A stretch of 64,000 nucleotides of DNA, taken from positions 1,404,950 through 1,468,949 of the forward strand of contig OZ244618.1 in the NCBI GenBank assembly GCA_965218375.1. The letters run 5' to 3'. Source of the stretch: Alphaproteobacteria bacterium (lineage in GTDB: Bacteria; Pseudomonadota; Alphaproteobacteria; G965218375). The position numbers and the translations under genes are program-made. Within the stretch, counting starts at the first letter, position 1. The number at the start of each line of letters is the position of its first letter. Shown in pieces: positions 1,654-46,800 of this stretch. The notes beneath the pieces were generated by a model, which made no database searches, was not told the origin of the DNA, and saw nothing but the letters and a program-made list of their open reading frames with translations.

Positions 1654-3360
1654 ATGATGAATGAAGTATTAAAATCCGAAGAGGCCCTAGGTCTTGAAGA
1701 AGACTTTTCAGCTCTTCTTGATGAAGTTTATGGCAAGGAAAAGTCCCTTGTTGGAACAGTCATCAGTGGTGTTGTAATTGACGTTGTAAATGATGATGTG
1801 TTGGTTGATGTTGGCCTTAAGTCTGAGGGGCGCATTCCGCTTAAAGAGTTTTCCTCTGCGAGTGGGGAATCTGAACCTCTTAAAGGGGACACCATCGAAG
1901 TCTTTTTTGAGCGCTACGAAAATGCTCAAGGTGAGGTTGTCCTCTCACGGGAAAAAGCGCGTCGCGAAGACTCTTGGAATGTGCTTGAAGTAGCCTTTAG
2001 CAAAGATGAGCGGGTGAATGGTGTTATCATCAGCCGCGTTAAAGGTGGATTTACTGTCGACCTATCAGGCGCTATTGCATTCTTACCAGGTTCACAAGTT
2101 GACTTGCGTCCCGTCCGTGATGTGATGCCTCTTATGGGCAAGAGCCAACCATTCCGAATCCTAAAAATGGATCGTAAGCGTGGAAATATTGTTGTTTCCC
2201 GTCGGGCTGTCCTTGAAGAGAGTCGTGCAGAATCACGTAACGAGATTCTTAAGAACCTTAAGGAAAACCAAGTCTATGAAGGTATAGTCAAGAATATTAC
2301 CGACTATGGGGCGTTTATTGACTTGGGCGGTCTGGATGGGCTTTTACATGTCACTGATATTGCATGGAAAAGAATTAATCACCCATCAGAAGCTCTCACC
2401 ATTGGGGAGACAGTGCGCGTATGTGTGATTCGCTATAATGCAGAAACACGACGGGTTTCAGTTGGTATGAAGCAATTGGAAGTTGACCCTTGGGAAAATG
2501 TGGAAGCGAAGTATCCAATTAATTCTCGCATTATTGGAAATGTAACTAGTATTACTGACTACGGTGCTTTTGTTGAACTTGAGCCTGGTGTTGAAGGTTT
2601 AGTGCACGTTTCTGAAATGTCATGGACCAAGAAAAACATTCACCCAGGAAAAATTGTTTCAACGTCTCAGCAGGTTGAAGTGATTATTCTTGAAAAAGAC
2701 AAGCGTCGTATTAGTTTAAGCTTGAAGCGCGCCCAAGATAATCCGTGGAGCTCTTTTGCTGAAAAGTATACCATCGGTACAGAAATTGAAGGTCAAATCA
2801 AAAATATTACTGAATTTGGCTTGTTTGTTGGGCTAGATGGCGAAATCGATGGAATGGTGCACTTGTCGGATCTTGACTGGTCACGCCCCGGTGATGTCGT
2901 GATTAAAGAGTACAAGAAACGGGATGTCATTAAAGCTAAGGTTCTGGAAGTTGATGTTAATAAAGAGCGTGTTGCACTTGGTATTAAGCAATTGCAAGAA
3001 GACCCGTTCAAGAATATGTCCACCAACGTCAAGAAAGGCGATACTGTAACGTGTATTGTTTCAGAAATACGGGATAATGGTATTAATGTGACGTTCTCTG
3101 ATGACTGTGAAGGTTATATCCGTCGGGGTGATCTTTCACGGGATAGGGACGCGCAGAAGAGCGAGTTGTTCAACGTAGGTGATAAGCTAGATGCTCTTGT
3201 GACCCAAGTTGATGTCAAAAACCGTAAAGTAAACTTGTCAATTAAACAGTTAGAATTGCAAGATGAAAAAGAAGTTATGGCCAATTACGGCTCTGCAGAT
3301 TCTGGAGCTCTCCTTGGAAGTATTCTTGGCGCTGCCTTGCAAAAGAAAAATAACAATTAA
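1654..3360 (+). CDS. rpsA: 30S ribosomal protein S1
   Basis: 568 aa with six tandem S1 RNA-binding repeats (GxV...G.FV.L..G..GL.H.S). An AAGGAG Shine-Dalgarno lies about 10 nt upstream. Confidence 0.95.
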   Translation: MMNEVLKSEEALGLEEDFSALLDEVYGKEKSLVGTVISGVVIDVVNDDVLVDVGLKSEGRIPLKEFSSASGESEPLKGDTIEVFFERYENAQGEVVLSREKARREDSWNVLEVAFSKDERVNGVIISRVKGGFTVDLSGAIAFLPGSQVDLRPVRDVMPLMGKSQPFRILKMDRKRGNIVVSRRAVLEESRAESRNEILKNLKENQVYEGIVKNITDYGAFIDLGGLDGLLHVTDIAWKRINHPSEALTIGETVRVCVIRYNAETRRVSVGMKQLEVDPWENVEAKYPINSRIIGNVTSITDYGAFVELEPGVEGLVHVSEMSWTKKNIHPGKIVSTSQQVEVIILEKDKRRISLSLKRAQDNPWSSFAEKYTIGTEIEGQIKNITEFGLFVGLDGEIDGMVHLSDLDWSRPGDVVIKEYKKRDVIKAKVLEVDVNKERVALGIKQLQEDPFKNMSTNVKKGDTVTCIVSEIRDNGINVTFSDDCEGYIRRGDLSRDRDAQKSELFNVGDKLDALVTQVDVKNRKVNLSIKQLELQDEKEVMANYGSADSGALLGSILGAALQKKNNN

Positions 3361-3385
3361 GAGACGTTTTCTTTCATGAATGAAA

Positions 3386-3415
3386 AAAAGCTGGTGTTAT
3401 GCCAGCTTTTTTTAT
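3386..3415. terminator. bidirectional Rho-independent terminator between convergent rpsA and ahcY
   Basis: Hairpin AGCTGG-tgttatg-CCAGCT flanked by an A-tract on the 5' side and TTTTTTT on the 3' side. Confidence 0.75.
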
Positions 3416-3434
3416 GGAAAATATGTCGCTCTCC

Positions 3435-4730
3435 TTAATAACGATAAAGCTCGGGCTTAAATGGTCCAGAGGGGTCGACGTTAATATATTGCGACTGTTC
3501 TTGTGTTAATGTCGTCAGTTTTGCCCCTATTTTATCTAGGTGAAGAAATGCAACTTTTTCATCTAACTGTTTAGGTAAGAGGTAAACTTGATTCTCATAG
3601 GAATGACAGTTTTGCCATAATTCAATTTGGGCAAGAACTTGATTCGTAAAGCTGGCAGACATTACAAAGCTTGGGTGTCCAGTTGCGCATCCCAAGTTAA
3701 CTAAGCGTCCCTTGGCTAAGACCAGCAGGCGCTTATTGTCTGGGAAAACCACTTCATCAACTTCGGGCTTAACTTCATCCCATTGATAGTTTTGTAAGGC
3801 ATCTATTTGAATTTCACTATCAAAGTGACCAATATTACACACAATGGCGCGGTCTTTCATAAGGCGCATGTGGTCAAGGGTGATGATATCAATATTACCC
3901 GTAGCCGTGACAAAAATATTTCCTTGGGGTGCTGCATCCTCCATGGTGACAACTTCAAAGCCTTCCATACAGGCTTGCAGGGCGCAAATGGGATCAACTT
4001 CAGTAACTAACACGCGGCATCCTGCAGAGCGGAGGGATTCTGCGGATCCTTTACCGACATCACCATAGCCCGCAACAACGGCAACCTTGCCCGCCAACAT
4101 GACATCTGTTGCCCGTCGGATACCATCTACCAGAGATTCGCGACACCCATACTTGTTGTCAAATTTTGACTTGGTGACAGAGTCATTAACATTAATTGCG
4201 GGGACTTTAAGGGTGGCATCTCGCACCATGGCATTTAAACGCAAGATTCCACTTGTGGTCTCTTCCGAGAGGCCTCTAACCTCTTTTAAGTGCTCAGGGT
4301 ACTTCTTATGCATGAGATCGGTTAAATCGCCCCCATCATCTAGGATCAAGTTTGGACGCCATCCATTTGGTCCGTCAATTGTTTGCTCTATACACCACCA
4401 GAAGTCTTCTTCACTCAAGCCTTTCCAAGCAAAGACAGGAATGTTTTGGGTTGCCATGGCTGCAGCTGCATGGTCTTGGGTTGAGTAAATATTACAGCTA
4501 GACCATCGCACTTCAGCACCTAATGCAATGAGAGTGTCAATCAGGACAGCAGTTTGAATTGTCATATGAAGACAGCCTGCAATACGCGCCCCCTTTAAAG
4601 GTTGTGAGGAGCCAAATTCTTCACGAAGCGCTATGAGCCCAGGCATTTCAGTTTCCGCAATTTTGATTTCTTTATGTCCCCAGTCTGCCAGGGAGATGTC
4701 ATGTACTTTAAAATCAGTAAATTCAACCAT
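3435..4730 (-). CDS. ahcY: adenosylhomocysteinase (S-adenosyl-L-homocysteine hydrolase)
   Basis: 431 aa with strong global SAHH similarity and an NAD-binding GYGDVGKG motif. Confidence 0.95.
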
Positions 4731-32329: not shown

Positions 32330-33274
32330 TTATTCAAAATTAGAAATAGCCTTATTTATGGAATCTAGGGAGTTATTTACAATATTTCTGCCAATATCGA
32401 TTAATTCTTCTGCTTTATCAAATTCTAGGAAGTTGATATGGGAGACATCTGGACATAAAAGCACATCAGGGGGGGTGTTTGTAAGGATTGTCTGGGTAAT
32501 GTTTTTTTGCATGATATTACTCGACATAATCAGCGTATCTATGATGCTGGGGGCACCCTCCTGGTTTCTTAAAAAAGAGGTAATATTTAGCTTATAAGGC
32601 GGTTTATTTTTAGGGGTATTTGAGTAACTAACCTGATTATATACAGGGGCCTCTGGTGGTGGATCTGATTTAATTTGTGGGCTTATAATCGGTTCTTTAC
32701 CTTGTTTAACAGATAGACTGACGGCAATAACAATATCAGCTCCAAAGCTTTGTGCCATAGTAATCGGGATTGGGTTGATTAATCCGCCATCAATGAGAAT
32801 ATGATCACCTAAGGTTACTGGACTAAAAATACCAGGAATAGCATAGGAGGCGCGCAGCGCATGGGCCAGCATGCCGCTTTGCATCCAATACTCACTGCCC
32901 GTCGCAAGTTCAGCGGCCACGCAGCCGAAACGAATGGGCAAGTCTTCTATATTGATCTTACCAATATGTTTTTCGAACTCGTCCATTAGTTTTTCACCCT
33001 GTAACACCCCGCCCCCAGTGACATGGATATCGAGAAAACGAAGAAGACGGAATGTCGTTAAACGACGGGTCCACTCTTCCAGGGCCTCAAGCCGTCCAGC
33101 AGCGTAACAGCCGCCAACAACCGCCCCGATAGATGTACCTGTAACAACATATGGTTTAATATTGTTTTCAAGCAGATGTTGAATAATACCAATATGAACC
33201 CACCCGCGACCGCCGCCACTTCCTAAGGCCAGCCCGATAACAGGTGCTTTACGTTTGGCCTTGGAGTGTCGCAT
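32330..33274 (-). CDS. patatin-like phospholipase (RssA family)
   Basis: Oxyanion motif GLALGSGGGRG, nucleophile elbow GTSIGA, and a DGG catalytic Asp. Confidence 0.85.
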   Translation of the reverse strand: MRHSKAKRKAPVIGLALGSGGGRGWVHIGIIQHLLENNIKPYVVTGTSIGAVVGGCYAAGRLEALEEWTRRLTTFRLLRFLDIHVTGGGVLQGEKLMDEFEKHIGKINIEDLPIRFGCVAAELATGSEYWMQSGMLAHALRASYAIPGIFSPVTLGDHILIDGGLINPIPITMAQSFGADIVIAVSLSVKQGKEPIISPQIKSDPPPEAPVYNQVSYSNTPKNKPPYKLNITSFLRNQEGAPSIIDTLIMSSNIMQKNITQTILTNTPPDVLLCPDVSHINFLEFDKAEELIDIGRNIVNNSLDSINKAISNFE

Positions 33275-33523
33275 TTTTCGGAAGAAATTTTGCAAAATTT
33301 ATGCTCCTCATAATTTGCTTCATATCACTCTAATTATATAATAATTTTAATATATTAGGGGAACAAAAACCATTATAGTTTTCAGAGAGGCATAAAAGAA
33401 CTTCTGACCATGCCCCCGCGAGAGGGCATTGTGGAGAAGGTGACAGGGGGGGATATGCCATTTTGAAGGGGCGACTACTTTGGGCCCTCAATCATGATAA
33501 TTTCTGTGCGTAGGGGGAGGGGA

Positions 33524-34129
33524 TTATGACGCTTTGATGGCGGCCATTATCTTGTTAAAGCGCGCAAGATATTCAGTCTTTTGGGTGTTGGGAGGACTGG
33601 GGATAATGGGTATATCTTGAATTTTTTTCAGTGGGACACAAAATAACTTTTTTGCCTCATCTTCTGTAAATCCCCCCAATTTTATCGCTTCAAAATATGC
33701 AGAGAGTTTATCGGCACGTTTGATCAGCTTGCGTATGTCTTCGGGGATCTCACCTTGCAGACCAAATCGTATATGAATAGCCGTTTGTAATCGACTTTCG
33801 ATGACCTTGTAGTCATTTCCAATAATGGCTTTGAAGGGAGAGATTAAGTCACCAATAACGTATTCTGAGGCGTCATGAAGAAGGGCAGCTAATTGCCATA
33901 TTGGTGCAATATCTCTCTTTAGCCGTGTGAGAATATCAACCACAAGCACGGAGTGCTGCGCCACGGAGTAAGCCCACTCCCCCCGCGTTTGGCCATTCCA
34001 TCGTGCTGTGCGTGACAATCCATGGGCAATATCTTCAATTTCTATATCCATGGGAGATGGATCCAGAAGGTTAAGCCGACGGTCACTTAACATACGTTGC
34101 CAAGCGCGAGGTTCTGAAGAGCGAGCCAT
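33524..34129 (-). CDS. HD-domain phosphohydrolase (YfbR/5'-nucleotidase-like)
   Basis: HD motif LLHDASEYVIGD with an upstream H...H pair. Confidence 0.7.
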   Translation of the reverse strand: MARSSEPRAWQRMLSDRRLNLLDPSPMDIEIEDIAHGLSRTARWNGQTRGEWAYSVAQHSVLVVDILTRLKRDIAPIWQLAALLHDASEYVIGDLISPFKAIIGNDYKVIESRLQTAIHIRFGLQGEIPEDIRKLIKRADKLSAYFEAIKLGGFTEDEAKKLFCVPLKKIQDIPIIPSPPNTQKTEYLARFNKIMAAIKAS

Positions 34130-34186
34130 AATCAACAGGTGTTTACAGAATAATAAGCGAGCAACATCTTCTTAAAGTCTAAAATA

Positions 34187-35350
34187 CTAATGCCAATTAT
34201 ATAATCTGTCTTTATAGGGAAAGTTAGGTAATATTTTCTGCATTATAAACTTGCGAATATTATGCCAGTACGTTCCGAATAGGATAAAGGAGAAGCTTAT
34301 AACCAAAATCATGTTGATGGTACCAAAACCAGAATCCGTTTTAAAAGGCGTAAGGTCAGAATATATGAAAGAGTACAGCAGAGCTGTGACAAGAAATGAC
34401 TTTCTATCCACTACAATGGCGAGCGTTAAAGCGAATACAAGAATTAGACAGAGAATAATAAGGTTTAAAGTCGTGGATGCTGGAAGATTCATTGTGATGA
34501 ATCTCATGAATAATGGACCGAAAATGGCAAAGTTCCAGAACGCAATTCTTGATTCTTTATTTTCTCTTTTTGGGTCTTTGACCTCAAAGTAAAGGGCAAC
34601 ACTTAAAACCGTGATAGATAATATCCCAAAGGGGAGAGAGAGAATAAAAGTGGTATTCCATTGAAGGAGAGCTGGTAGTGTGCCTGTTAAATCTGCTATG
34701 TAAAATGCCCATGCGTATATAGTCATAAGTATTGATATGTATATGGGAATTAAACTAAAGTAGATTTTTGTGAAAAAATAGTAGGCAACACTTAAGGTTA
34801 AAGTAATGAATAAAGTATATTTAAGTACATTCACAGTTCTACTTATATCAATATTAGTAGGTTCGAAAGATGACGTTACTGACTTTGTCGTCTCTGACGT
34901 TTCACCAGATTTGTCATTAGATGTCATTTTATAATTATAATTATAAGTATATGAAAATGATGAGAATGAAGACTTTATATTACCTATCATCTCGCCTTCA
35001 GGTGCTCCTGTACTGCAGATTAAAAATGTCAAACTAACGGTAAGTTTGATAAGTAAGAAAAAAGCAAGAGCGGTTGTTAGGATACCTGGAAAAGACATTC
35101 CTCGAGAATGGTAGTAGTATTTAGCCGTAAAAGCAGAGAGTACCCACAGTGCAGCCATAGAAAAGAAATACCCATAATTATTAAAATTTGTTGACTTGAA
35201 CATCATAATAGCAATGAATACAATGATCGAAATAGAAATTAGAATTTCGGTTGTACCTTTAAAGGCTACGAACTTTTCTGATTCGTTTGTTGAAGTCGCC
35301 TTTGGTGTTTCGTCATTGTCTATAAATTCAGGAGCTGAGTCTTTTTTCAT
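34187..35350 (-). CDS. polytopic integral membrane protein, about 10 TM helices, function unknown
   Basis: 387 aa with a hydrophilic N-terminus, multiple hydrophobic 20-aa segments, and a Ser/Thr/Tyr/Asn-rich loop. No recognisable family. Confidence 0.45.
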   Translation of the reverse strand: MKKDSAPEFIDNDETPKATSTNESEKFVAFKGTTEILISISIIVFIAIMMFKSTNFNNYGYFFSMAALWVLSAFTAKYYYHSRGMSFPGILTTALAFFLLIKLTVSLTFLICSTGAPEGEMIGNIKSSFSSFSYTYNYNYKMTSNDKSGETSETTKSVTSSFEPTNIDISRTVNVLKYTLFITLTLSVAYYFFTKIYFSLIPIYISILMTIYAWAFYIADLTGTLPALLQWNTTFILSLPFGILSITVLSVALYFEVKDPKRENKESRIAFWNFAIFGPLFMRFITMNLPASTTLNLIILCLILVFALTLAIVVDRKSFLVTALLYSFIYSDLTPFKTDSGFGTINMILVISFSFILFGTYWHNIRKFIMQKILPNFPYKDRLYNWH

Positions 35351-35412
35351 ACTGAAACTTTCACGTCTTGTAGATTAAGGTTAAATAAATATGCTAATTA
35401 AATTTTTACTTT

Positions 35413-35424
35413 CTCTCACGTGAG
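35413..35424. promoter_or_regulatory. perfect 12-bp palindrome TCTCACGTGAGA about 65 bp upstream of the membrane-protein gene
   Basis: Seen directly in the sequence. Operator-like. Confidence 0.25.
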
Positions 35425-35543
35425 ATAATAACCTTCGATGATCGTTTGTCAATAAGGTGCTGTACCCCTCTAGGGTCAGAGGTGTTGGTATTGAGGAAAT
35501 AAAATGAGAGAAAAAGGGGGAACTCTTTATTGATAAGCTCTGC

Positions 35544-36209
35544 TTAAAAATCAAGATTACTGTAGGTACTTGGAGGAGAAATGTGCGGAATTCTATCTTT
35601 AAGAATCTCTTTCATGCTTAGACGGGATTTAAACTTTTGGTACCAGTCCATGAGGATGGGCGCCTTGAGCCAGTCAATTTCATTCAGATAGTCAAGACAG
35701 CTTAAATGTCCTGCCAAGGTAATATCCGCCAAAGTCATGGTATCTCCAGAAATCCAGTTACGTTTTTCGAGCAAAAACTCAAAGTATTTAAGGTGAGGTT
35801 TGAGATTTGCGCGTCCGGCACGAATGACTTCACTTTTCGGTTGGGTTTTGTCTTTAAACGGTTTCGTGACGCGTTCATTGACCAGATACCTTGTGACCTC
35901 ATCATAAAATTTATGGTTTATCCAAGAGATGAGACGACGGGTTTCAAGGCGAGATGGGGGGTCGTGGGGTAATAAAACATTTTCTGTGTAGGTGTCTTCA
36001 AGGTATTCGGGAATGAGGTGACCGTCAGGTACAATGGTACCGTTATCCTCAAGTATTGGAACCTCACCAGTAGGGCTGAGTCGGTACAAGTCGGACCCAT
36101 TAGGGCCCATACTTTCAGGGTTAAGGGTGAAATCTAACATCTTTTCCGCAAGGTGGATTCTTGCTATTCGTGATAGGGGATCAAGATATGTGCAGTGTAG
36201 GATGCGCAT
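35544..36209 (-). CDS. glutathione S-transferase family protein
   Basis: 221 aa with a thioredoxin-like N-domain and a helical C-domain typical of GSTs. Confidence 0.7.
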   Translation of the reverse strand: MRILHCTYLDPLSRIARIHLAEKMLDFTLNPESMGPNGSDLYRLSPTGEVPILEDNGTIVPDGHLIPEYLEDTYTENVLLPHDPPSRLETRRLISWINHKFYDEVTRYLVNERVTKPFKDKTQPKSEVIRAGRANLKPHLKYFEFLLEKRNWISGDTMTLADITLAGHLSCLDYLNEIDWLKAPILMDWYQKFKSRLSMKEILKDRIPHISPPSTYSNLDF

Positions 36210-36253
36210 ATAATAAATTAATACTCCTTAAGAAAATAAAGTTGAGGAAAAAA

Positions 36254-37045
36254 CTATTTTGTAAGATGAAGAGTTTTCAATACTTCATCATGTAAACGAG
36301 GGTCTCCAGTAGCAACAATGGTGCTGTCAAAGTTTTTTAAAGTAATTCGGTCGCCTGAGAAGGTTGTTACCCGCCCTCCAGCTTGTTCTATGAGAGGAAT
36401 TAGCGCCATAATATCATAGGTGTTGATGCCAGCTTCGACAACAATATCAGCGAATCCGTGGGCAAGTTGGAGAAAACCAAAGGCGTCCGCACCCATGCGC
36501 GTAAAATAGGTGCGTGCCATCAAGGCATCAAGCCTGGGACGGTTTTCCGTGTCCCAGTACTCAAGACCACTGGTAAAGACGATGGCCTGATTGAGGTGCG
36601 GGCAGGGGCGCGTGGCAACACTTGTGCCATTGATCATGGTTGGTAAACCCTCACCTCCATGCCATGCTTCCCGCAAGATCGCTTGTTCTGCTGCGCCGAA
36701 AACTGGCTGTCCATTTCTTGTGAGTCCGATGAGGGTGGTAAATAGAGGAATTCCAGTAATAAAACTCTTGGTCCCATCAATGGGGTCGAGGCACCAAATA
36801 TATTCTGCATTTGTTTGGACAGAGTCAAACTCTTCGCCAATGATGCCATGGTCGGGAAACTCGGCTTGAATAATTTTGCGCATGGCTTGTTCTGCGTTTT
36901 TATCTGCAAGAGTAACGGGGCTTTGATCCCCTTTACTCTCGACATGAATCGGCCGTCGGTAGAAGGGCAGAATCTCATCGCGCACTGCAGAAAATATCCT
37001 CTGGGTGATATTAATAAAAATGTCGGCGTTCAATGCAATAGACAT
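36254..37045 (-). CDS. inositol monophosphatase family protein (SuhB/HisN-like)
   Basis: IMPase motifs EE...DPIDGT (WCLDPIDGTKSF) and WD..AG. Confidence 0.85.
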   Translation of the reverse strand: MSIALNADIFINITQRIFSAVRDEILPFYRRPIHVESKGDQSPVTLADKNAEQAMRKIIQAEFPDHGIIGEEFDSVQTNAEYIWCLDPIDGTKSFITGIPLFTTLIGLTRNGQPVFGAAEQAILREAWHGGEGLPTMINGTSVATRPCPHLNQAIVFTSGLEYWDTENRPRLDALMARTYFTRMGADAFGFLQLAHGFADIVVEAGINTYDIMALIPLIEQAGGRVTTFSGDRITLKNFDSTIVATGDPRLHDEVLKTLHLTK

Positions 37046-37290
37046 AAGAGGGGCTTTTCCAGATTTTTAGGGGCAAGTTTTAAAGAAGCAGAAAAATCCG
37101 CGCACTCGCTGCTTACGGGATGAATATCCCCTTTTAATATATACCAAAATTTGTTCGAAATAAAACACTATAATTATGATTTATGACCCAGGTAACCTCT
37201 TAAAAATAGGCCATATCTAGGGGTAGGTTCAAGGGAGAGACTCATAAAAGGATAACGCAAAAAAAATCCCTAATACATTTTGTGAGGTAT

Positions 37291-37318
37291 GGCACCTCCC
37301 CCACAAATTGGGGGTGCC
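37291..37318 (-). terminator. stem-loop downstream of the cytochrome c gene
   Basis: GGCACCtCCCCCA-caaat-TGGGGGTGCC, an 11-12 bp GC-rich stem. Confidence 0.4.
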
Positions 37319-37339
37319 AATACAGAAACATTGAGGGGT

Positions 37340-37870
37340 TTATTCAGTGACAAGCTCAACCGGTGATGGGGTCAATGTATTCAAATAACTAATGATATCT
37401 GCCCGCTGCTGATCTTTTTTAAGACCAATATAGCCCATTTTCGTTCCTTTAATATAACTTTTGGGGTTTTGGAGGAAAAGGTTTAATTGTGAAACAGTCC
37501 ACGCACCCTCATGTTCCGTAATGACAGATGAATATGCATAGTCAGAAAGACGCGCAACATCATTCCCAATAACGCCATAAAGATTTGGACCTGTTTTGTG
37601 AGGTTCACCTTCATTAAAGCTGTGACATCCAAGACATTTACTGGCTACTCGTTTGCCACGTTCCGCACTTGCAACAGCAAGAAAAGTGGAAAAGGGAATA
37701 ACTTCCTTTATTTCACCTTCTGGTTTGACTTCTGGAACTTCAATTTGGTATCCACGACTGGTAAGTGTTTCTTTATGGAAAAGAAACCTAGAAATTTCAA
37801 CTAATACAAATAATATGATGCAAGAGGCTAAGACGGCACCTGCCCATTTGTTAAGTGTAAAGTTATCCAT
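37340..37870 (-). CDS. cycM: membrane-anchored class I cytochrome c (CycM-like)
   Basis: N-terminal TM anchor, CLGCH haem-binding motif, and a distal Met ligand region. Confidence 0.8.
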   Translation of the reverse strand: MDNFTLNKWAGAVLASCIILFVLVEISRFLFHKETLTSRGYQIEVPEVKPEGEIKEVIPFSTFLAVASAERGKRVASKCLGCHSFNEGEPHKTGPNLYGVIGNDVARLSDYAYSSVITEHEGAWTVSQLNLFLQNPKSYIKGTKMGYIGLKKDQQRADIISYLNTLTPSPVELVTE

Positions 37871-38313
37871 AATTTATAAATCCTGCTTTAAGACTTCTTC
37901 ATTCATTAAGGAAGCATATGTGTTAAATATTACTGAGTATTTTCGTATTGAATCCATAGATAACTTGATGTGGATCATGACAATCAACACAAAAAAATAA
38001 AAAAAATCTCTTAATAAAAAAAATAATAATTATTATAGTTAATTTTTAACCTAATCTATTTTGTGAGCATGAAGTAACAATGTACATATAATCAATTTTA
38101 TTTTTATATACCAGTGTTTTTATGGGTATTCTTTTTTAATTTAGGTTTATTGGGGGTCAGATTTGTGGTGAGATGACCTAAAAAATACAGAGTATTCAGA
38201 ATTTTTTATTTTGTTGAGAAAAAATATATAAAATAAATTAAGAAATATCAGATTATTTCTAATCTATTTTGTATTGTCTATGTTTATTAATTTTAAATGA
38301 GATTTGAGAGACT

Positions 38314-39165
38314 ATGACCAAAGTTATCGCATTTCAGGGCGCACATGGTGCAAATTCAGAAATAGCATGTTCGTATTTTTGTTCGGAATCTGAGACGGTG
38401 CCCTGTGAAACTTTTGAAGATACCTTTGATACCTTACTTGAAGGACGCGCGAATCTCGCTATGATTCCCATTGAGAATAGTCAAGCTGGTCGTGTTGCAG
38501 ACGTTCATAATTTGTTACCGGAATCCAGACTGAGCATTGTTGCGGAACATTATCAACCAATTTATCATCACCTTCTTGCGTTACCAAATGTACCGTTTTC
38601 CAATATTAAGCAGATTCGTAGTCACACCATGGCGCTGGCCCAATGTCGGGAGAAACTCCGTAAGTGGGGGGTGTCGTGTCATGTGAGTGCTGATACTGCA
38701 GGCGCTGCCCGTGATCTTGTTTTATCTCAAGACCCAACTGTTGCGGTGGTTGCAACACGTCTGGCTGCTGAGATTTATAAGTTAAATATTCTTGAGGAAA
38801 ATATTGAGGATTCTAGCGACAATATGACCCGATTTGTGGTGTTATCAAGGCAAGAAGACTGGCCTTCAATAAATGTAAAGTCTATGACCACGATTATTTT
38901 CTGCCTTAAAAGTTTGCCGTCAGCCCTATATAAATGTTTAGGGGGATTTGCGACGAATAAAATTAATGTTACTAAAATTGAGAGTTACGTATCTTGGGGT
39001 AACTTTAATGCAGCACAGTTTTATATGGACTTTGAGGGGCATCCTCATTCTGAAGATGTTGCCCTTGCCCTTGACGAATTGCGGTATTTTTCTACGGATA
39101 TGCGCATTATTGGCGTGTACCCCCAATCACCATACCGTCAAAGTATGCGCGAAGTTAAAGCGTAG
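38314..39165 (+). CDS. pheA: prephenate dehydratase
   Basis: PDT catalytic domain (TRF motif in SDNMTRFVVL), ESRLSIV, and a C-terminal ACT domain. Confidence 0.9.
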   Translation: MTKVIAFQGAHGANSEIACSYFCSESETVPCETFEDTFDTLLEGRANLAMIPIENSQAGRVADVHNLLPESRLSIVAEHYQPIYHHLLALPNVPFSNIKQIRSHTMALAQCREKLRKWGVSCHVSADTAGAARDLVLSQDPTVAVVATRLAAEIYKLNILEENIEDSSDNMTRFVVLSRQEDWPSINVKSMTTIIFCLKSLPSALYKCLGGFATNKINVTKIESYVSWGNFNAAQFYMDFEGHPHSEDVALALDELRYFSTDMRIIGVYPQSPYRQSMREVKA

Positions 39166-39217
39166 GGGTGAGGGGGGAGTTCACGTGTTGCGAGGGAAGT
39201 TAACGTCCATGGGCGCT

Positions 39218-39646
39218 TTATTTGCGCGCTCCGACAAAAATCCCCGTTAAGACCATACCCACAAGACCAATAACCGTTACTGCAGTACTGCCTACCAGAA
39301 AGTCTAAAACATTATCAGGAAGGAAAAAGTGAGCAAATAGCCATTGTTTGAGGCCATGGGCAACGATAATCAATGTCACAACCGTGCAATAGATGCACAT
39401 GAAGATGTATGCCCTGTTCGCATAGGGTTTAATAAGTTGATTAAGGATTGTCGAGGCTTCATTCAGGTTACGGTTTTCTGTGATTAAGTCCTCATTTTTG
39501 CTGCCGACTGCCGCAAATGTTTTAAGCAAGACTTTTATATCTTTTAAAGAGTCGCTGGCGTCAGAGTCGCTCGTAAAGGTATCGGGTGAGGCGGTCTCAA
39601 TGTCTTTTATATCAACTTTTATGTTCTTTTGTTTCTCGTCCTGCAA
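39218..39646 (-). CDS. small protein with an acidic/Ser-rich N-terminal half and two C-terminal TM helices; candidate toxin partner of the DUF4065 gene
   Basis: 142 aa. TTG start overlaps the last 35 nt of the upstream DUF4065 gene, with AAGG 8 nt upstream. No family recognised. Confidence 0.45.
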   Translation of the reverse strand: MQDEKQKNIKVDIKDIETASPDTFTSDSDASDSLKDIKVLLKTFAAVGSKNEDLITENRNLNEASTILNQLIKPYANRAYIFMCIYCTVVTLIIVAHGLKQWLFAHFFLPDNVLDFLVGSTAVTVIGLVGMVLTGIFVGARK

Positions 39647-40100
39647 GTGCCAACCTTGTAAAATAATCTGAAATTACTGTGTTTTTTATAATTGTATTTC
39701 TGCCACTTTTAATATAGGCCACGTACCATGGCGACCCGAGCTGGTGTGTCATTTCTGAGAGGTCTTTTCCCGTAAAGGAGCCATATTTTTCCCATACCTT
39801 TTCAATTATGTCTTTTTCTGGTCTGTTCATCTCTGTAGTATATGGCTTGTTTGTGCCTGGACGCACAAGTCTACCTGTTTTCTTGTCGCACTTATAGTCA
39901 CGTAAATGATTCCAGAGTGCGCGAATTACAGGTCCCCCATCCCACGCTTCAAATTCATCGTTGATCAGTGACGTCTTATGAATTGCTAGGTGCCACCCAC
40001 ATGTGAAAAAAATGAGTTTTTGGAGTTTCATTTGAGAAATTTCTTCGCCATTGATCTCAATGAAAGAGTTGGCAACGGCTCGAGAATCATAATTAGCCAT
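39612..40100 (-). CDS. DUF4065 / Panacea-domain protein (PanA/SocA-like antitoxin)
   Basis: 162 aa. AVANSFIE...MKLQKLIFFTCGWHLA...EFEAWDGGPVIRALW matches the DUF4065 core (A..vAnyfl...i..lkLqKLlYy.qgwhLa...plf.e.feAW..GPV...y). Confidence 0.75.
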   Translation of the reverse strand: MANYDSRAVANSFIEINGEEISQMKLQKLIFFTCGWHLAIHKTSLINDEFEAWDGGPVIRALWNHLRDYKCDKKTGRLVRPGTNKPYTTEMNRPEKDIIEKVWEKYGSFTGKDLSEMTHQLGSPWYVAYIKSGRNTIIKNTVISDYFTRLALAGRETKEHKS

Positions 40101-40428
40101 TTTTGTTAATACCTTAGTTTCTGTTCAACAAGCAAATTATATAACAAACGCCCAATAAATTCTACACTATAAATGAATGGGGGGATTATTTTAACAAAAA
40201 TAGGGATTATTTACTGCGGTGTCCTTTATTTTAGGGATACCCATGCATATATAAGCCTTATAGGTATCTTACCGATTAATTTGAGATGAAGATATATAAC
40301 CTAAAATTTTTAGGGCGAATTATTCTATGTAGTGTGTGGGCTTATTTTCCACATATAAAAAAGATATTATTTGAGCTTTCTAAAGAAGCTATGGTTGGTG
40401 AGGCGTTTACACGTGAAGAATTTATAGT

Positions 40429-41265
40429 TTATGTGTCATCGTCTTGAGAGTATTTGGGTATTTTTAAGGAGATAGCTATGTCGTTTGTTTCTGAATTTAC
40501 AGTGGTTGCTTCGTTACTGTTTTGCCACTTTTTCATGTTGACCATGGCAAGCCCAGCAGCTTTAAAGGTGCTGAGAGTCGTGCCAATCTCAATATCTCCA
40601 GCAAAAACACGGGAATGATGGGGAAGGGGCGTCTCGTCAAGGGATGTGACCAAAACCAGACGTTTCTTAATGGCGTTGCGGTAGTGGGTGCGCGCCGTAA
40701 CTTCCTGACCAACGTAGCACCCTTTTTTAAAGTCAACACCGTTGGTTTTGTCTGCCCAGATTTCTAAGGGTAAGGTTTTATTAAAAACCCAGTCTCTAAT
40801 TCCATCCGTTAATCCTAGCGCGTGGCGGTGACGGTCAAATTCTCCGAGGGTTGTGGTCAGGTTATCGGGCGCAGCGTCTTCTGGAAGGATCACCCACCAC
40901 CCTGAATCTTCTAAGCGCGGATCGGGGAAAATAATCCAATCATTTTGCCCCCCCTGTACTGGAGCGGTGGCATGGGCAATACGGGCGTCACGATGAACAA
41001 TATCAACCCGTGAGCGCAGCTTGTACATGTTCAGCCGCGTCGTAAGTTCCTGGGCGTTGTCTTTATCGATAAGTATCTTCAAAGGGTCTTGACCAATAAT
41101 AAAAAAGTCAGCGATCATTTTTCCTTGAGGGGATAGCAGCGCACTATATACAGCGTTTTTATCATCTACACGCTCAACGTCTTGTGTGATCAAACTTTGT
41201 AAGAAGGGCCGTGTATCTGCGCCTGATACTTCGATGACGGTTTTATGGGAAAGGGCGGCGAGCAT
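40429..41265 (-). CDS. ygfZ: folate-binding Fe-S cluster repair / tRNA-modification protein YgfZ (GcvT-like)
   Basis: K-G-C-Y-x-G-Q-E signature (KKGCYVGQEVTARTHYRN) in a GcvT-like fold. Confidence 0.8.
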   Translation of the reverse strand: MLAALSHKTVIEVSGADTRPFLQSLITQDVERVDDKNAVYSALLSPQGKMIADFFIIGQDPLKILIDKDNAQELTTRLNMYKLRSRVDIVHRDARIAHATAPVQGGQNDWIIFPDPRLEDSGWWVILPEDAAPDNLTTTLGEFDRHRHALGLTDGIRDWVFNKTLPLEIWADKTNGVDFKKGCYVGQEVTARTHYRNAIKKRLVLVTSLDETPLPHHSRVFAGDIEIGTTLSTFKAAGLAMVNMKKWQNSNEATTVNSETNDIAISLKIPKYSQDDDT

Positions 41266-41384
41266 ATAAAAGAACCTTGTAACATGAAAGCGTGGGCTTT
41301 ATAGTTTGCGATGAGTGAATTTTTGTTCATATATAAAATCACCGTTCACCATATCTGATAACCTGATTCTTGTATATTAAAATT

Positions 41385-42950
41385 ATGAGTTGTGTTGATT
41401 TGCAACGGACACAGAGGTTCGACCCTTTACAAGTTGTGAAAACTTATTTTGGTTTTGCATCCTTTCGTGGACAGCAGGGGCATATTATCCGTAACATTTT
41501 ATCGGGTCATGATGTCTTGGCCATACTCCCAACAGGTGCGGGTAAGTCTTTATGCTATCAGGTTCCGGCCTTATGTTTAGAGGGTACCGCTCTTGTGATA
41601 AGTCCTTTGGTCGTGCTGATGGAGCAGCAGGCGCAACTTTTGCGGGATAAAGGTATTGCCGCAGCCGCGTTTCATTGTGGCCGTGCGCCGAAAGACCTCT
41701 CAACAGATATGAAGTTATTTGCTAAAGGGTCTTTAAAAGTGGCCTTTATTTCACCTGAACGGGTTATCGACCAATACTTTCAAGGCTTACTTGATCACGT
41801 TAAGTTAAGTTTAATCGCCATTGATGAGGCCCATTGTATATCAGAATGGGGGTACGATTTTCGACCAGAGTATGGACAATTATCACAAATTTTGAAGCGT
41901 TATCCCCGTATACCTAAGCTAGCTTTAACCGCAACGGCCTCCCCTCGGGTGCGCGGCGATATTTTAAATAGTCTTGGCCTCACAAGTGTCTTGGTCTTTA
42001 GCGAGAGTGTAGATCGTTTAAACTTATCTTTAAATGTTTATCCGAAACAGCAATTTCGCGCGCAGCTTGTGCGCTTTCTTAACCAGCACGCACACCTTGG
42101 GACGGGGTTAATTTATTGTCAGACGCGCAAGCAGGTTAACTCATTACACCTGTATTTGAATGGGTGCGGTTTTGAAACAGAGCCCTATCATGCGGGCTTA
42201 CCTCAGGATGAACGCCAGCGGGTTGCAGATATTTTTATCCAAGGCAAGGCGCCTCTGGTTATTGCAACGGTTGCGTTTGGTATGGGGGTCAATCGTTCTG
42301 ATGTCCGTTATGTTCTTCACGCGGATCCGCCTCGGAGTTTAAGCGCGTATGTCCAGCAAATTGGCCGTGCTGGTCGAGATGGCGTGCGGTCAATGACGGG
42401 CTTGTTTAGTGGGTTATCTGATATACAGCGTATTTGCCTTTTATTACAACGGGAACCGAAAAAATCCCTCAGGGAACAAAGGGTAGGGGAGTTTTGTGAT
42501 GTGGTGAAGTTTGCTGAGTCTCGGCTCTGTCGTTGGCAGTTCTTGCGGGTATACTTTGGCGAAGAGAAAGGCAAAGAGTGCGGGCAGTGTGATCGGTGCT
42601 GTCAAGATGTTAAGTGGATAGATGGTGCACTGTATGCACAAATGCTTCTAAGTGCCATATATCGGTGCGGAGTCGGCGTTGATACGCGTCATATTATTGA
42701 TGTGGTTATGGGACGCAGAACCCCCTATGTGGAGCGGTTTTCCTTTCAATTCCTAGGGGTTTTTGGCCAAGGCGCTGACCTCTCACGGGCATCATGGAGA
42801 TACCTCCTTAGGTGTTTAATTGGGGATCGTTTAATTGAGGTGGTGGGAGATCAATACCAAGCGTTCTTACGCGTCAATGAGAAAGCGCGTCCCCTCTTAA
42901 AAGGCGAGTGTGCATATGAAATTCCAGATCCCTTTTCCGCGCCCTGTTAA
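41385..42950 (+). CDS. recQ: RecQ-family ATP-dependent DNA helicase (short form: helicase plus zinc/winged-helix region, no HRDC)
   Basis: GFASFRGQQ, PTGAGKSLCYQ, DEAHCISEWGYDFR, and a 4-Cys zinc motif (C...C..C..C). Start at ATG 41385. Confidence 0.8.
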   Translation: MSCVDLQRTQRFDPLQVVKTYFGFASFRGQQGHIIRNILSGHDVLAILPTGAGKSLCYQVPALCLEGTALVISPLVVLMEQQAQLLRDKGIAAAAFHCGRAPKDLSTDMKLFAKGSLKVAFISPERVIDQYFQGLLDHVKLSLIAIDEAHCISEWGYDFRPEYGQLSQILKRYPRIPKLALTATASPRVRGDILNSLGLTSVLVFSESVDRLNLSLNVYPKQQFRAQLVRFLNQHAHLGTGLIYCQTRKQVNSLHLYLNGCGFETEPYHAGLPQDERQRVADIFIQGKAPLVIATVAFGMGVNRSDVRYVLHADPPRSLSAYVQQIGRAGRDGVRSMTGLFSGLSDIQRICLLLQREPKKSLREQRVGEFCDVVKFAESRLCRWQFLRVYFGEEKGKECGQCDRCCQDVKWIDGALYAQMLLSAIYRCGVGVDTRHIIDVVMGRRTPYVERFSFQFLGVFGQGADLSRASWRYLLRCLIGDRLIEVVGDQYQAFLRVNEKARPLLKGECAYEIPDPFSAPC

Positions 42951-42972
42951 CTAAAAACCTATAGGGGGGGGG

Positions 42973-43803
42973 TTAGGAGTAGATATCTGGTTGTTTCTTG
43001 GAAAATAACGGAACTTTGTGGAGGGGTATTCCGCCAACTGCTGAAAAACTTGGATTAAGAAAGTCTGGTTTTCCGTATAGTAAAGGTGTGCCGTCATGTT
43101 GGATGACATGACCGCCAGCGGCACTAAGTAACGCGTGACCAGCCGCAGTATCCCACTCCATAGTCGGGGTGGTGCGAAGGTAAAAATCAGCAACATCTTC
43201 AGCGACCAACCCAAACTTGAGAGAACTTCCGCGGCGGATGAAGCTTTTTACAGGCATTTGATTGAGGTATTCTTGTAAGTTGGCGCTTTGGTGGTTTTGG
43301 CTGCCAACAAAACGCCAAAACTTATGGGCGGGTTTTACTTTCAAGGGCTGGCGCGTAGAGTGTGGCGTGATTTTAAAGGCAGATTTGTTTTCATCTGCCA
43401 CATATGTGGTATTAAAGGCGGGACAGTGGATAATACCAAGTACGGGAACCCCATCAACAATAAGGGCGATATTGACGGTAAAGTCAAAGCTGCCTCTAAT
43501 AAATCCTTTGGTACCGTCAAGGGGGTCAATTAACCAAAAGGGCGCATCGGTGATATCGGGAATATGGCCTTTTGCTGTTGCTTCTTCTCCAATACATTTA
43601 ATATGGGGATTGAGGGCGACTAATGTTTCTGTAATCAAGACTTCTGCTTTTTCATCGGCCTCTGTGACGGGGGAAAGATCAGGCTTGATGTCATAGTTAA
43701 AGTTAGAAGAGTGATAAATGTCTATAATTAACAGCCCTGCTCTTTGACACAAATCAATGAGAATGTTTATGGTATTTGATGGAAGGCCAAGGGTCTTAAG
43801 CAT
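42973..43803 (-). CDS. cysQ: 3'(2'),5'-bisphosphate nucleotidase
   Basis: IMPase-superfamily motifs (WLIDPLDGTKGF, WD.AAG). The size and N-terminus are typical of CysQ rather than SuhB. Confidence 0.75.
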   Translation of the reverse strand: MLKTLGLPSNTINILIDLCQRAGLLIIDIYHSSNFNYDIKPDLSPVTEADEKAEVLITETLVALNPHIKCIGEEATAKGHIPDITDAPFWLIDPLDGTKGFIRGSFDFTVNIALIVDGVPVLGIIHCPAFNTTYVADENKSAFKITPHSTRQPLKVKPAHKFWRFVGSQNHQSANLQEYLNQMPVKSFIRRGSSLKFGLVAEDVADFYLRTTPTMEWDTAAGHALLSAAGGHVIQHDGTPLLYGKPDFLNPSFSAVGGIPLHKVPLFSKKQPDIYS

Positions 43804-43872
43804 TGTAACAAACCATTTATTAAAGTCTTTTAAAATAAAAGTGTGGTGAAGGCGTACCGAGCATATTTTAGG

Positions 43873-46800
43873 TTAAGATGTATCTATGTGAGAGATATTA
43901 TAGCGAATTTTTAACCATTCCTCAGTGTTTTTCATTGCATGGGTGAGGGTTTTTGCTGAATTTGCTGCCGCAAGCAGGTCTTCACGCTCACAGTCTTCTG
44001 CTATTTGGAGGCATATCTTTTTGACATATATTGCAGATATGGTATCAGACGTCCCGATGAGCTGTGAGATTTGTTTGGCAATCTCAATCATATCCCCGCA
44101 TGACAGAGCGGTGTTAATTAAGATAAGGCGCTTGTTGGTATCTTTAAGAAAGTTTATGGCCAGCTCACGAATAAAACTTAACCCCAGTTCTTCTTCAGAT
44201 TTTGTCAGTTCTTCATTATCAATGATGATTTGGTCTTTAAAGGAAGTAATGAAAGACTTAATGGCAAAGGAAATCTTTTTCACACTAATAGGTTTTTGGA
44301 TAATTTGGCTGATACCTGCAATATGGGCATGTTTTGCAAGTTCTGGTGAGATATTATTGATCAAAAGAAAAATAGGGATATTGTTAATGTCAGCCTGCAA
44401 CGTACGAATAGAATGAGTAATATCAATACCATTGATATGCTCAACGTCATGATCAATGATAATAGCATCAACGGTTGAGGAAGTGTTTTTTAATATCTTG
44501 GAGAGTTCATTTTGGTTTTGGGCAAAGCTAATCTTATACCCTAAAGATTGGAGCTGAGAGAAGAGAGAGTCTTCGCTTTCAGGTTTTTTCATTGTCAGCA
44601 CAACATGTATGGAGTCTGCATCTAATCCAATCAGCTCGTCATAATCTTGTTCTTGTACCTGAGGCATCTCACTGAGCCGTTGCGTAAGAGACTTTTGGGA
44701 AGTCTGCTCCTTGTGAGCATCTATAACGTGTTTAATTTCCGCAACTAGCTCCACCGGATAGGTTAATTGTTTTGGCAGAACATAGGTTGGAATATTGCCA
44801 ATCAAAGAGGGAGTCTGTTGATGCAGAATATCAATACTTTTCTGATCAGCGATAATAATCATATTATCTTTATTTGAGATGGCGGATGTCCCATGTAGGG
44901 CATCAATCACATGTCTAATATCGTTATATTTATAAATGGTTGGGTTATAATTTGAGAGAAAGGTTTCTACCTTTTTTTCTCGGATAATGTTGCTCGTAAT
45001 CAGAATGATGCATATGTCTTTTAAGAGGGGGTACAGGGCATTGGTTACCGCATCATAGATTGGCATAATAGGCAGCTGCAAAAGTAAAAACTTTATCTCA
45101 TCATAGTCGGATGCTTGAACAATGGTTCCTTTCAAGGTTTTAAGACTATGGAGGATGTTTGACATGGGTAACCCAATTTCCGTCCACATTTGAGGAATAT
45201 TATTAATACTCATCTTATGGGTGTAATAGTACAAAATGTTGTTATTGAATAGGTGGGGAGATGATGATTCAATTTGAATGTAGATTTGATTTTTTTGCTG
45301 AGGGTTTCTTCTAATCCACAGGCCTACGAATCCTGAGTCGGTAACATCAATCGCATGGTTAAGGAGAGTCGAGAGCAGTCTTTCAAATTGTTTATTATCG
45401 ATAATCGCTAATTGAGGTAAGTTCGGGTCTGTAAAGAACTCATAGTCTAAATTTTTCTGACTAAGAAGGTGGGTGTAATTATTGATCGTGGACTCAATCA
45501 ATTCGGGAATACAACACTCACTTAAGTTTAGTTTATCTTGGCTCTGACCCTCGATGAAAGCGATAAGGTTCTCGATGCGCTGGATGTTGATATTGACGTC
45601 GACCATATCTTGTTGGCTTGCCTTTAGGGACCCTTGCTTAACACTATTCTGGTGATAGGCGTGTACTTTTCCTGTAAGCGAGAGAATCTCTTCATAAAAT
45701 TTATTCAGGTATGAGGTATGAGATTCCGCGTCGTGATCTATTTTTGCCTCAAGAACACGGAGTTTTTCTTTATAGTGGGTGATGGCGGAGATGTCTTTAA
45801 AAACAAGAACAACCATATAAATGGAATTTATACTCTTTTTCAAAGGAGAGAGGATAATTTCAAGTTCAAGAGATTTGTCAAAAATCTTGATGGTTTGCAG
45901 TTTTTTAGTTTTTAACAGGACTTTAAAACTCTCTTGCAATTCTGGAAATAGGGCACTCGACCAAATGTCGGTTAAAAGAGTGCCTTTGTGGTGGGTATTA
46001 GCCAGCCTATTTTCTAGAAAGTTTTTCGCAATATTATTCTGGTTAATTACGACCTGACTGGGAGTTAGAAGAATCAGCCCATCTGAAATAGACTGGAGAA
46101 TCGTGCTGTTGAGTATCTGTTTTTCTTTAGTTTGTTCATTTAGACTGCTCAGAGTATCGCGGTTTTTGAGGAGGCGCCAGATAAAAAGAAGATAGAACAG
46201 GAAGACGAGGGCTGTTGATGAAAATATTAATATGTTGCGATACATATTTTGTAATGGAAAGAGACTATTATCCATAAATGACATGATGCCAATATTGAGC
46301 TGACTATCGTTGGTAAGAGCAACGATAGTATTGTGATCAATAAAGGTTTCATGGGTCAGATTAGACTTAGAATTTAAAATGGTATTATTGTGGTTTATAA
46401 AACGATACAGCTCTTCAAATTCCTCGTAGCTCCATTCAAAATTGCTGACTGTCTCTTGATCGTTTGGAGGCGCTGAATGGTGGTGAGGGTCATACTCAGG
46501 GTGAGAATGATTGGAATGGCTCGGTATGTTATACCCAATTTTTGCTAAAATATTACCAACGCATTGTAAGTTGTGGCTGTCACTAAAGTTAGAACTTTTT
46601 TTGATAATATACCCTTGTGAGTTTATCCATAAGTATTGGTAAAGGTTATTTTTAGATTCATCTAAGATGGTCGCCCATAATTTATCTGCATTGATGCGTG
46701 CGGCAATTACCCCCCGAATAGTGCCGTTATTATTTTCCAAAGGCATTACCATAGTAACAATTTGGCCCTTCTCAAGAAGCTTTTTTTTAAGCAGAAAAAC

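Follow-up and report, generated by a model that had tools for sequence, protein, structure and literature searches.

A predicted PanA–PanT toxin–antitoxin gene pair with a T3-type membrane toxin in an uncultured alphaproteobacterium

The window analysed here, a 64,000-nucleotide (nt) stretch of an alphaproteobacterial chromosome (contig OZ244618.1 of assembly GCA_965218375.1, positions 1,404,950 to 1,468,949), carries two small overlapping genes, panA and panT, predicted to encode a Panacea-domain antitoxin and a membrane toxin. We consider it highly likely that they form a chromosomal type II PanA–PanT toxin–antitoxin (TA) module whose toxin belongs to cluster T3 of the published PanAT systems. 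An earlier note on this DNA had described two open reading frames (ORFs), their overlap and the TTG start of the second, and the coordinates confirm this, with both genes on the minus strand and 35 nt shared:

39612..40100, minus strand: panA, ATG start, 162 amino acids (aa); stand-alone Panacea (DUF4065) protein, domain at residues 26–126; predicted antitoxin.
39218..39646, minus strand: panT, TTG start, 142 aa; predicted membrane toxin, T3 type.
39612..39657, minus strand: putative coupling region, comprising the panA/panT overlap and an AAGG, read off the sequence.

The overlap spans 39612–39646, the panT TTG occupies 39646–39644, and the minus-strand letters leading into the start are ACAAGGTTGGCAC-TTG. 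The AAGG reported previously is present (39657–39654, minus strand), at a distance of 7 nt from the TTG rather than the 8 nt first given. Use of the TTG is supported by the N-termini of homologues, which align there, and by a conserved DIDxAP-like motif that closely follows. In a survey of one reference genome per species, which yielded 54 PanT loci and did not include the window's own genome, 47 of the 54 have an in-frame start that gives an overlap of 1–47 nt with panA. The 35-nt overlap and the AAGG together suggest coupled translation, such that PanA would be produced whenever PanT is.

The DUF4065/Panacea core that the earlier note recognised in the 162-aa protein is borne out by Pfam, in which PF13274 (SocA_Panacea) scores 76.6 bits against a gathering cut-off of 25.7 (expect value, E, 3.7e-21) and is matched over positions 1–113 of 113; the same scan gave no second domain in PanA. 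PanA also matches phrog_1281 (E 1e-35), is 33% identical (E 6e-26) to the annotated PanA of Escherichia phage PhiR47_1, and has no hydrophobic segment above the transmembrane (TM) threshold in a hydropathy plot, while a PDB sequence search with it detected no solved structure. PF13274 is named after SocA, and the NCBIfam model NF047745 (SocA_antitoxin) matches PanA with E 9.5e-24, as might be expected of a SocAB-like type VI module in which PanA is a proteolytic adaptor, delivering the toxin to ClpXP rather than neutralising it through binding. SocA–SocB of Caulobacter, whose antitoxin has the same Panacea/SocA domain, indeed works by ClpXP-mediated degradation and not by sequestration. The SocB toxin, however, is soluble and binds to the clamp of DNA polymerase, whereas PanT is an unrelated two-helix membrane protein. 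The NF047745 score of 84 bits is well below the curated cut-off of 190, so that PanA is no SocA equivalog, and in the classification of Kurata et al. (2022) PanAT pairs are type II, toxin and antitoxin forming a direct complex (PMC8832971). We regard the adaptor alternative as extremely improbable. The full PF13274 match, the lack of another domain and the sub-threshold NF047745 score identify PanA as a stand-alone Panacea protein and not as SocA itself, and SocAB was also rejected as an identity for the pair since the partner has two TM helices and no NCBIfam or Pfam match.

A PanA homologue is also encoded by Rhodobacter phage RC1 (JF974308; 2498–3718 of locus L063), followed by a 240-aa ORF (2996–3718) of which the annotated coding sequence covers just the last 109 codons. 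A tblastn search with the window PanT gave no match to this locus, and the ORF may be a different, unannotated PanT partner.

PanT matched no model in Pfam, NCBIfam or PADLOC scans and gave modest matches to phrog_26171 (E 2.3e-9) and phrog_13343 (E 1e-7). Its Kyte–Doolittle hydropathy (19-residue window) exceeds 1.6 at window centres 85–91 and 121–132. An AlphaFold2 model built on 25 homologues (mean predicted local distance difference test score 79) has a disordered N-terminus, a short helix at residues 14–18, a long helix at 30–99, a loop of ∼11 residues and a helix at 111–139; the predicted TM1 is the last part of the long helix (about residues 76–99) and the predicted TM2 lies at about 111–139. 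As modelled, the C-terminal part shows a helical hairpin rather than a single tail anchor. The first 75 residues contain 14 Asp/Glu, 10 Lys/Arg and 13 Ser/Thr (net charge −4) and are mildly acidic and Ser/Thr-rich. The earlier picture of an acidic, Ser-rich N-terminal half followed by two C-terminal TM helices thus stands, with the charge being mild and Thr contributing alongside Ser, while the term ‘tail-anchored’ has to be replaced by the hairpin. Basic residues are found before TM1 (K73, R78) and after TM2 (R141, K142), and the positive-inside rule applied to these suggests that both termini are cytoplasmic. A Foldseek search of the model against the PDB returned nothing with E below 6, and a PDB search with the PanT profile gave only insignificant coiled-coil matches.

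PanA/PanT pairs were defined by Kurata et al. (2022), who validated nine of them, three with membrane toxins (PMC8832971). The PanT family of the window can be assigned to their toxin cluster T3 because three genomes that carry it are listed there under T3 with exactly matching spacings:

Rhodobacter maris JA276: T3, antitoxin first, spacing −26; the same spacing is available at our locus L020.
Aquimixticola soesokkakensis CECT 8620: T3, antitoxin first, spacing −8; the same spacing is available at our locus L044.
Sphingomonas faeni MA-olki: T3, antitoxin first, spacing +2; the same spacing is available at our locus L050.

The same cluster contains the PanT of E. coli STEC O31 (pair WP_000287252.1/WP_000019185.1, spacing +22), the expression of which stops transcription, translation and replication and brings about strong depolarisation with SYTOX Green uptake, and which is neutralised by its PanA (PMC8832971). 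A tblastn search of phage records with the window PanA led to Escherichia phage PhiR47_1 (PV340566), where the depositors annotated PanA at 308–781 and PanT at 804–1352, leaving a gap of 22 nt that matches the STEC O31 spacing. Alignment of the window PanT family profile to the 182-aa PhiR47_1 PanT with hhalign gave a probability of 96.8% and E 2.2e-10, the aligned region comprising both TM helices together with the end of the long one. The score of 65.7 compares with 19.3 ± 4.6 (maximum 37.0) in 100 shuffles that kept the soluble, TM and loop segments, and with 15.3 for the reversed sequence; since these controls are far lower, the real score being about 10 standard deviations higher than the shuffles, the match is not due to hydrophobic composition. 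PhiR47_1 PanT belongs to the same two families that the window PanT matches, phrog_13343 (1.8e-113) and phrog_26171 (1.6e-22), and its 90%-identity cluster is a widespread enterobacterial 182-aa ‘hypothetical protein’.

The earlier note had held that the partner of PanA was without a recognisable family and might represent an undescribed toxin class. This can no longer be maintained, as the spacings, the hhalign result and the PHROG matches all place the PanT family in T3 of Kurata et al.; its broader reading of the locus, in which PanA is the antitoxin of a small membrane toxin, was right in view of PF13274, the two TM helices and the T3 homology. As judged by sequence comparison, the pair is a new, uncharacterised member of a PanAT class already published, T3, and does not represent a new toxin class.

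One further genome of the survey, Novosphingobium rosa NBRC 15208 (L021), carries a toxin of T3-like type at a spacing that could be 49 or 76, whereas the supplementary table of Kurata et al. gives its PanA pair under T1 with spacing 61 (PMC8832971). This would be explained by a second PanA locus in the genome or by an overlap between T1 and T3.

Compared through PhiR47_1, the window and E. coli STEC O31 pairs both have the antitoxin gene first, and each antitoxin is a stand-alone Panacea protein about 160 aa long. In both toxins a charged N-terminal stretch precedes a coiled-coil-like helix, and the C-terminal part has two TM helices, the second with the common pattern G-S/T-T/S-x-x-x-V/I-G-L-V-G-x-V-x-x-G-x-F. 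They differ in that the window PanT is shorter (142 versus 182 aa) and has in its N-terminus the conserved DIDxAP-like motif, which is not seen in the E. coli protein, and the genes overlap by 35 nt in the window but lie 22 nt apart in E. coli. Furthermore, the PhiR47_1 pair is in a prophage, whereas the window pair is chromosomal and has housekeeping neighbours. The pair of Bartonella apis/choladocola (T12, NetFlax node D11) resembles that of the window in its alphaproteobacterial host and stand-alone Panacea antitoxin, which directly neutralises a small membrane-depolarising toxin with a charged N-terminus and a C-terminal TM region (PMC8832971, PMC10440598). T3 and T12 are separate FlaGs clusters, which the authors regard as possibly homologous although the two do not group with each other (PMC8832971). 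The type I membrane toxins Hok and TisB have the same end effect, in that a small hydrophobic protein depolarises the inner membrane, and HokB served as a comparison in Kurata et al. (PMC8832971); toxins of this type, however, are below 60 aa with one TM helix and antisense-RNA control, in contrast to the 142 aa, two TM helices and protein antitoxin of the window PanT.

Homologues of the window PanT are numerous, with 405 at E ≤ 1e-3 in a database of 5.8 billion proteins; among the matches listed, most measure about 135–160 aa, and Alphaproteobacteria account for most of those with a named source. An exhaustive profile search against 50%-identity representatives gave 812 matches at E ≤ 1e-3 and 270 at E ≤ 1e-10, those listed being small proteins throughout. 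The family alignment has 24 invariant columns, concentrated in the near-invariant TM2 motif FLVGSTAVTVIGLVGMVLTGIFVGARK, and an ITVxDIDxAP-like N-terminal motif that starts a few residues past the PanT start. One family member, P0092 of Qipengyuania marisflavi, is named ‘DUF2207 domain-containing protein’ in NCBI and UniRef with no Pfam domain recorded, a name that probably stems from a weak match to the TM region.

A PanA homologue, 35–52% identical to that of the window, lies directly upstream of the PanT homologue on the same strand at all 54 surveyed loci. The surroundings vary, from uvrB and an EamA gene in a Roseobacter, to a Bax1-I gene and one that faintly matches the RND type in Pseudovibrio, to a Novosphingobium-like contig with an Arc-like gene on one side and type I restriction-modification genes on the other. 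These observations support a conserved two-gene module that occurs in unrelated contexts, and such varied contexts are typical of a self-contained mobile module. Searches of phage and plasmid collections by tblastn with the window PanT gave no match, for plasmids even at E ≤ 1, with the reservation that the BLAST low-complexity filter may mask the TM region.

A contig assembled in Logan (SRR29904086; L061, 1799–6018) has a homologous PanAT pair flanked by an Arc-like gene and by a type I restriction-modification specificity/methylase pair, a setting that resembles a defence island; its PanT, P0015, is named as being from Novosphingobium sp. FSW06-99 in NCBI and UniRef.

The pair could instead serve chiefly in phage defence by abortive infection, with the Panacea protein sensing a phage cue and freeing the toxin to kill the infected cell, a role that is compatible with the TA mechanism. 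In its favour, a sensory function of Panacea is the view preferred by Ernits et al. (2023), and the same study reports anti-phage activity of RosmerTA, another TA system with a membrane-depolarising toxin. Homologous pairs moreover sit at prophage ends, in PhiR47_1 (308–1352) and at the end of a contig predicted to be viral in IMG/VR (L130), where the pair lies about 1 kilobase (kb) past an integrase, and one adjoins type I restriction-modification genes as described above. Yet that contig is the only 1 of 2.9 million in IMG/VR with this PanT subfamily, and the neighbours of the pair in the window are housekeeping rather than defence genes. PADLOC gave PanA a match to the candidate system PDC-M19A (E 0.0036), which is marginal, and none to PanT; the two proteins were not assigned to one defence system. 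We found no published phage-defence test of any T3 PanAT pair. On balance, we consider a role chiefly in abortive infection rather doubtful.

Whether the pair was inserted at its present position can be considered from its flanks:

40101..40428, minus strand: upstream spacer, 328 nt, 30.8% GC; presumed promoter region.
38314..39165, plus strand: prephenate dehydratase (pheA), PF00800 (E 2e-54); converges on the pair over a 52-nt spacer.
40429..41265, minus strand: YgfZ/CAF17-type folate-binding protein, PF01571 and PF25455; upstream of the pair over the 328-nt spacer.

These domain matches establish the housekeeping neighbours pheA and ygfZ, and the two spacers, as they had been proposed. The same cannot be said of the AT-rich DNA in which the pair was thought to lie. 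Its GC content of 41.3% is close to that of the window (42.3%), third codon positions (37% GC in panA, 47% in panT) are inside the range of neighbouring genes, and of the two spacers solely the 328-nt one is AT-rich, the 52-nt one having 61.5% GC. Other intergenic DNA is AT-rich too: between the divergent cytochrome c and pheA genes (37871–38313), 300-nt windows over 37850–38299 have 20–22% GC, so that AT-rich spacers are normal in this genome and are no mark of foreign DNA. A repeat search around the pair for att-like repeats or target-site duplications gave only short matches at chance level, and no tRNA or mobility genes were found among the identified neighbours.

In the nearest relatives, the suhB–cytochrome c–pheA block is conserved and is followed after pheA by a NUDIX-like gene, and the recQ..ygfZ block is conserved and is followed after ygfZ by an adenine glycosylase gene; at both blocks these relatives lack the pair and the pheA–ygfZ junction. 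The pair is thus located exactly where the two conserved blocks meet, and neither block has it elsewhere. The comparison is with relatives (chosen by ygfZ for L056 and by pheA for L064) that are 48–53% identical in the query protein, and is therefore no true empty-site comparison. The host lineage, in which the proteins of the window are recorded on a contig of 1,999,363 bp, appears poorly sampled, the closest homologues in the database being 48–52% identical for ygfZ and 47–53% for pheA. Acquisition at a rearrangement point fits these observations but is unproven, and there is little to support an acquired insertion in AT-rich DNA.

Two PF00459 (inositol-monophosphatase-family) genes bracket the region, lying on opposite sides of the two conserved blocks, at 36254–37045 of the window and beyond recQ (1844–2674 and 8600–9391 of L001). 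L001 is a second public assembly of the same organism (ENA ERZ25073827, contig_33) and is 99.9% identical to window positions 33220–45641 (12.4 kb), with 0 mismatches and 11 gap openings, a pattern that resembles homopolymer-type indel error in one of the assemblies. With these indels, pheA is called in L001 as a 311-aa gene that runs into the 3′ end of panT, whereas the 283-aa pheA of the window keeps its conserved C-terminus. PanA and PanT are identical between the two assemblies.

The match of the pair to the base composition of its host, and its place among housekeeping genes, could also mean that the 142-aa protein is no toxin, being instead a benign small membrane protein (for example an anchor or regulator partnered by PanA), or that the module is an inactive remnant; in the NetFlax study, ten of the systems tested proved non-toxic to E. 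coli. However, both ORFs are intact and the window PanT retains all 24 invariant family residues, and the homologous E. coli protein is toxic (PMC8832971). A patchy family in non-syntenic contexts is a poor fit to a housekeeping gene, and the nearest relatives lack the pair at both conserved gene blocks. A benign or inactive pair is, in our view, very unlikely.

Domain identity, gene architecture, the conserved association of the two genes and homology of the toxin to its E. coli counterpart are all observed for the pair, and a mechanism may be proposed for the T3-type TA module on this basis. panA and panT would be co-transcribed from the AT-rich spacer upstream of panA, with translation coupled through the 35-nt overlap. 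The C-terminal two-helix hairpin of PanT would insert into the inner membrane with both termini in the cytoplasm, and the toxin probably oligomerises through its long helix. By homology to the E. coli T3 pair, free PanT would depolarise and permeabilise the membrane and thereby halt all macromolecular synthesis; toxicity, neutralisation by PanA, depolarisation and raised permeability are in this respect expectations from the literature on relatives. PanA would keep the toxin inactive by binding its cytoplasmic N-terminal part, that is the disordered region, the DIDxAP helix or the helix ahead of TM1, and loss or inactivation of PanA would free it. Such binding is proposed by analogy with the Bartonella choladocola pair, in which a predicted contact of Panacea with the unstructured N-terminal region and a short pre-TM helix of the toxin was confirmed by mutagenesis (PMC10440598). 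We infer from this analogy that the conserved DIDxAP-like helix of PanT is a candidate PanA contact.

Several points weigh against this interpretation. Identity to the E. coli PanT, as represented by PhiR47_1, is just about 22% and confined to the C-terminal 90 residues, and the two proteins do not share a conserved N-terminal region, the part of the toxin where PanA is presumed to bind. The accession WP_000019185.1 was not seen in the cluster listing of PhiR47_1 PanT, leaving identity by accession unconfirmed. The pull-downs of Kurata et al. cover five PanA–PanT pairs, none of them with a membrane toxin (PMC8832971). Finally, a promoter scan of the upstream region gave 2 sites where 4.1 are expected in shuffles, which is not above chance.

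Two features of the upstream spacer are recorded here:

40194..40166, minus strand: weak sigma-70-like match (promoter scan).
40182–40191 and 40203–40212: exact 10-nt direct repeat GGGATTATTT in the AT-rich spacer (repeat search).

The copies of GGGATTATTT are 21 nt apart (two helical turns), lie about 85–110 nt upstream of panA and overlap a weak −35-like hexamer. The repeat could be an operator and could equally be due to chance, another exact 10-nt repeat being present within the same 1.4 kb. A terminator scan found none, and no Rfam family reached threshold across the whole window, which lends no support to an antitoxin or regulator made of RNA.

Our results extend the T3 membrane-toxin class, already published and validated, to an uncultured alphaproteobacterium whose genome is about 2 Mb in size, and in this respect contribute little novelty. 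With no Pfam, NCBIfam or PADLOC model to recognise them, T3-family toxins are called ‘hypothetical’ by annotation pipelines, and the PanT family alignment with its TM2 signature could seed a family model. The pairing with PanA at 54 of 54 loci and the conserved N-terminal motif point to a testable PanA-binding element. A bolder proposal, which we consider unlikely as it stands, is that the alphaproteobacterial T3 subfamily is a chromosomally fixed abortive-infection module, in which Panacea would sense a phage or stress cue via the DIDxAP region and release the pore-forming hairpin; if true, this would supply both the trigger of the Panacea antitoxin and the biological role of the pair.

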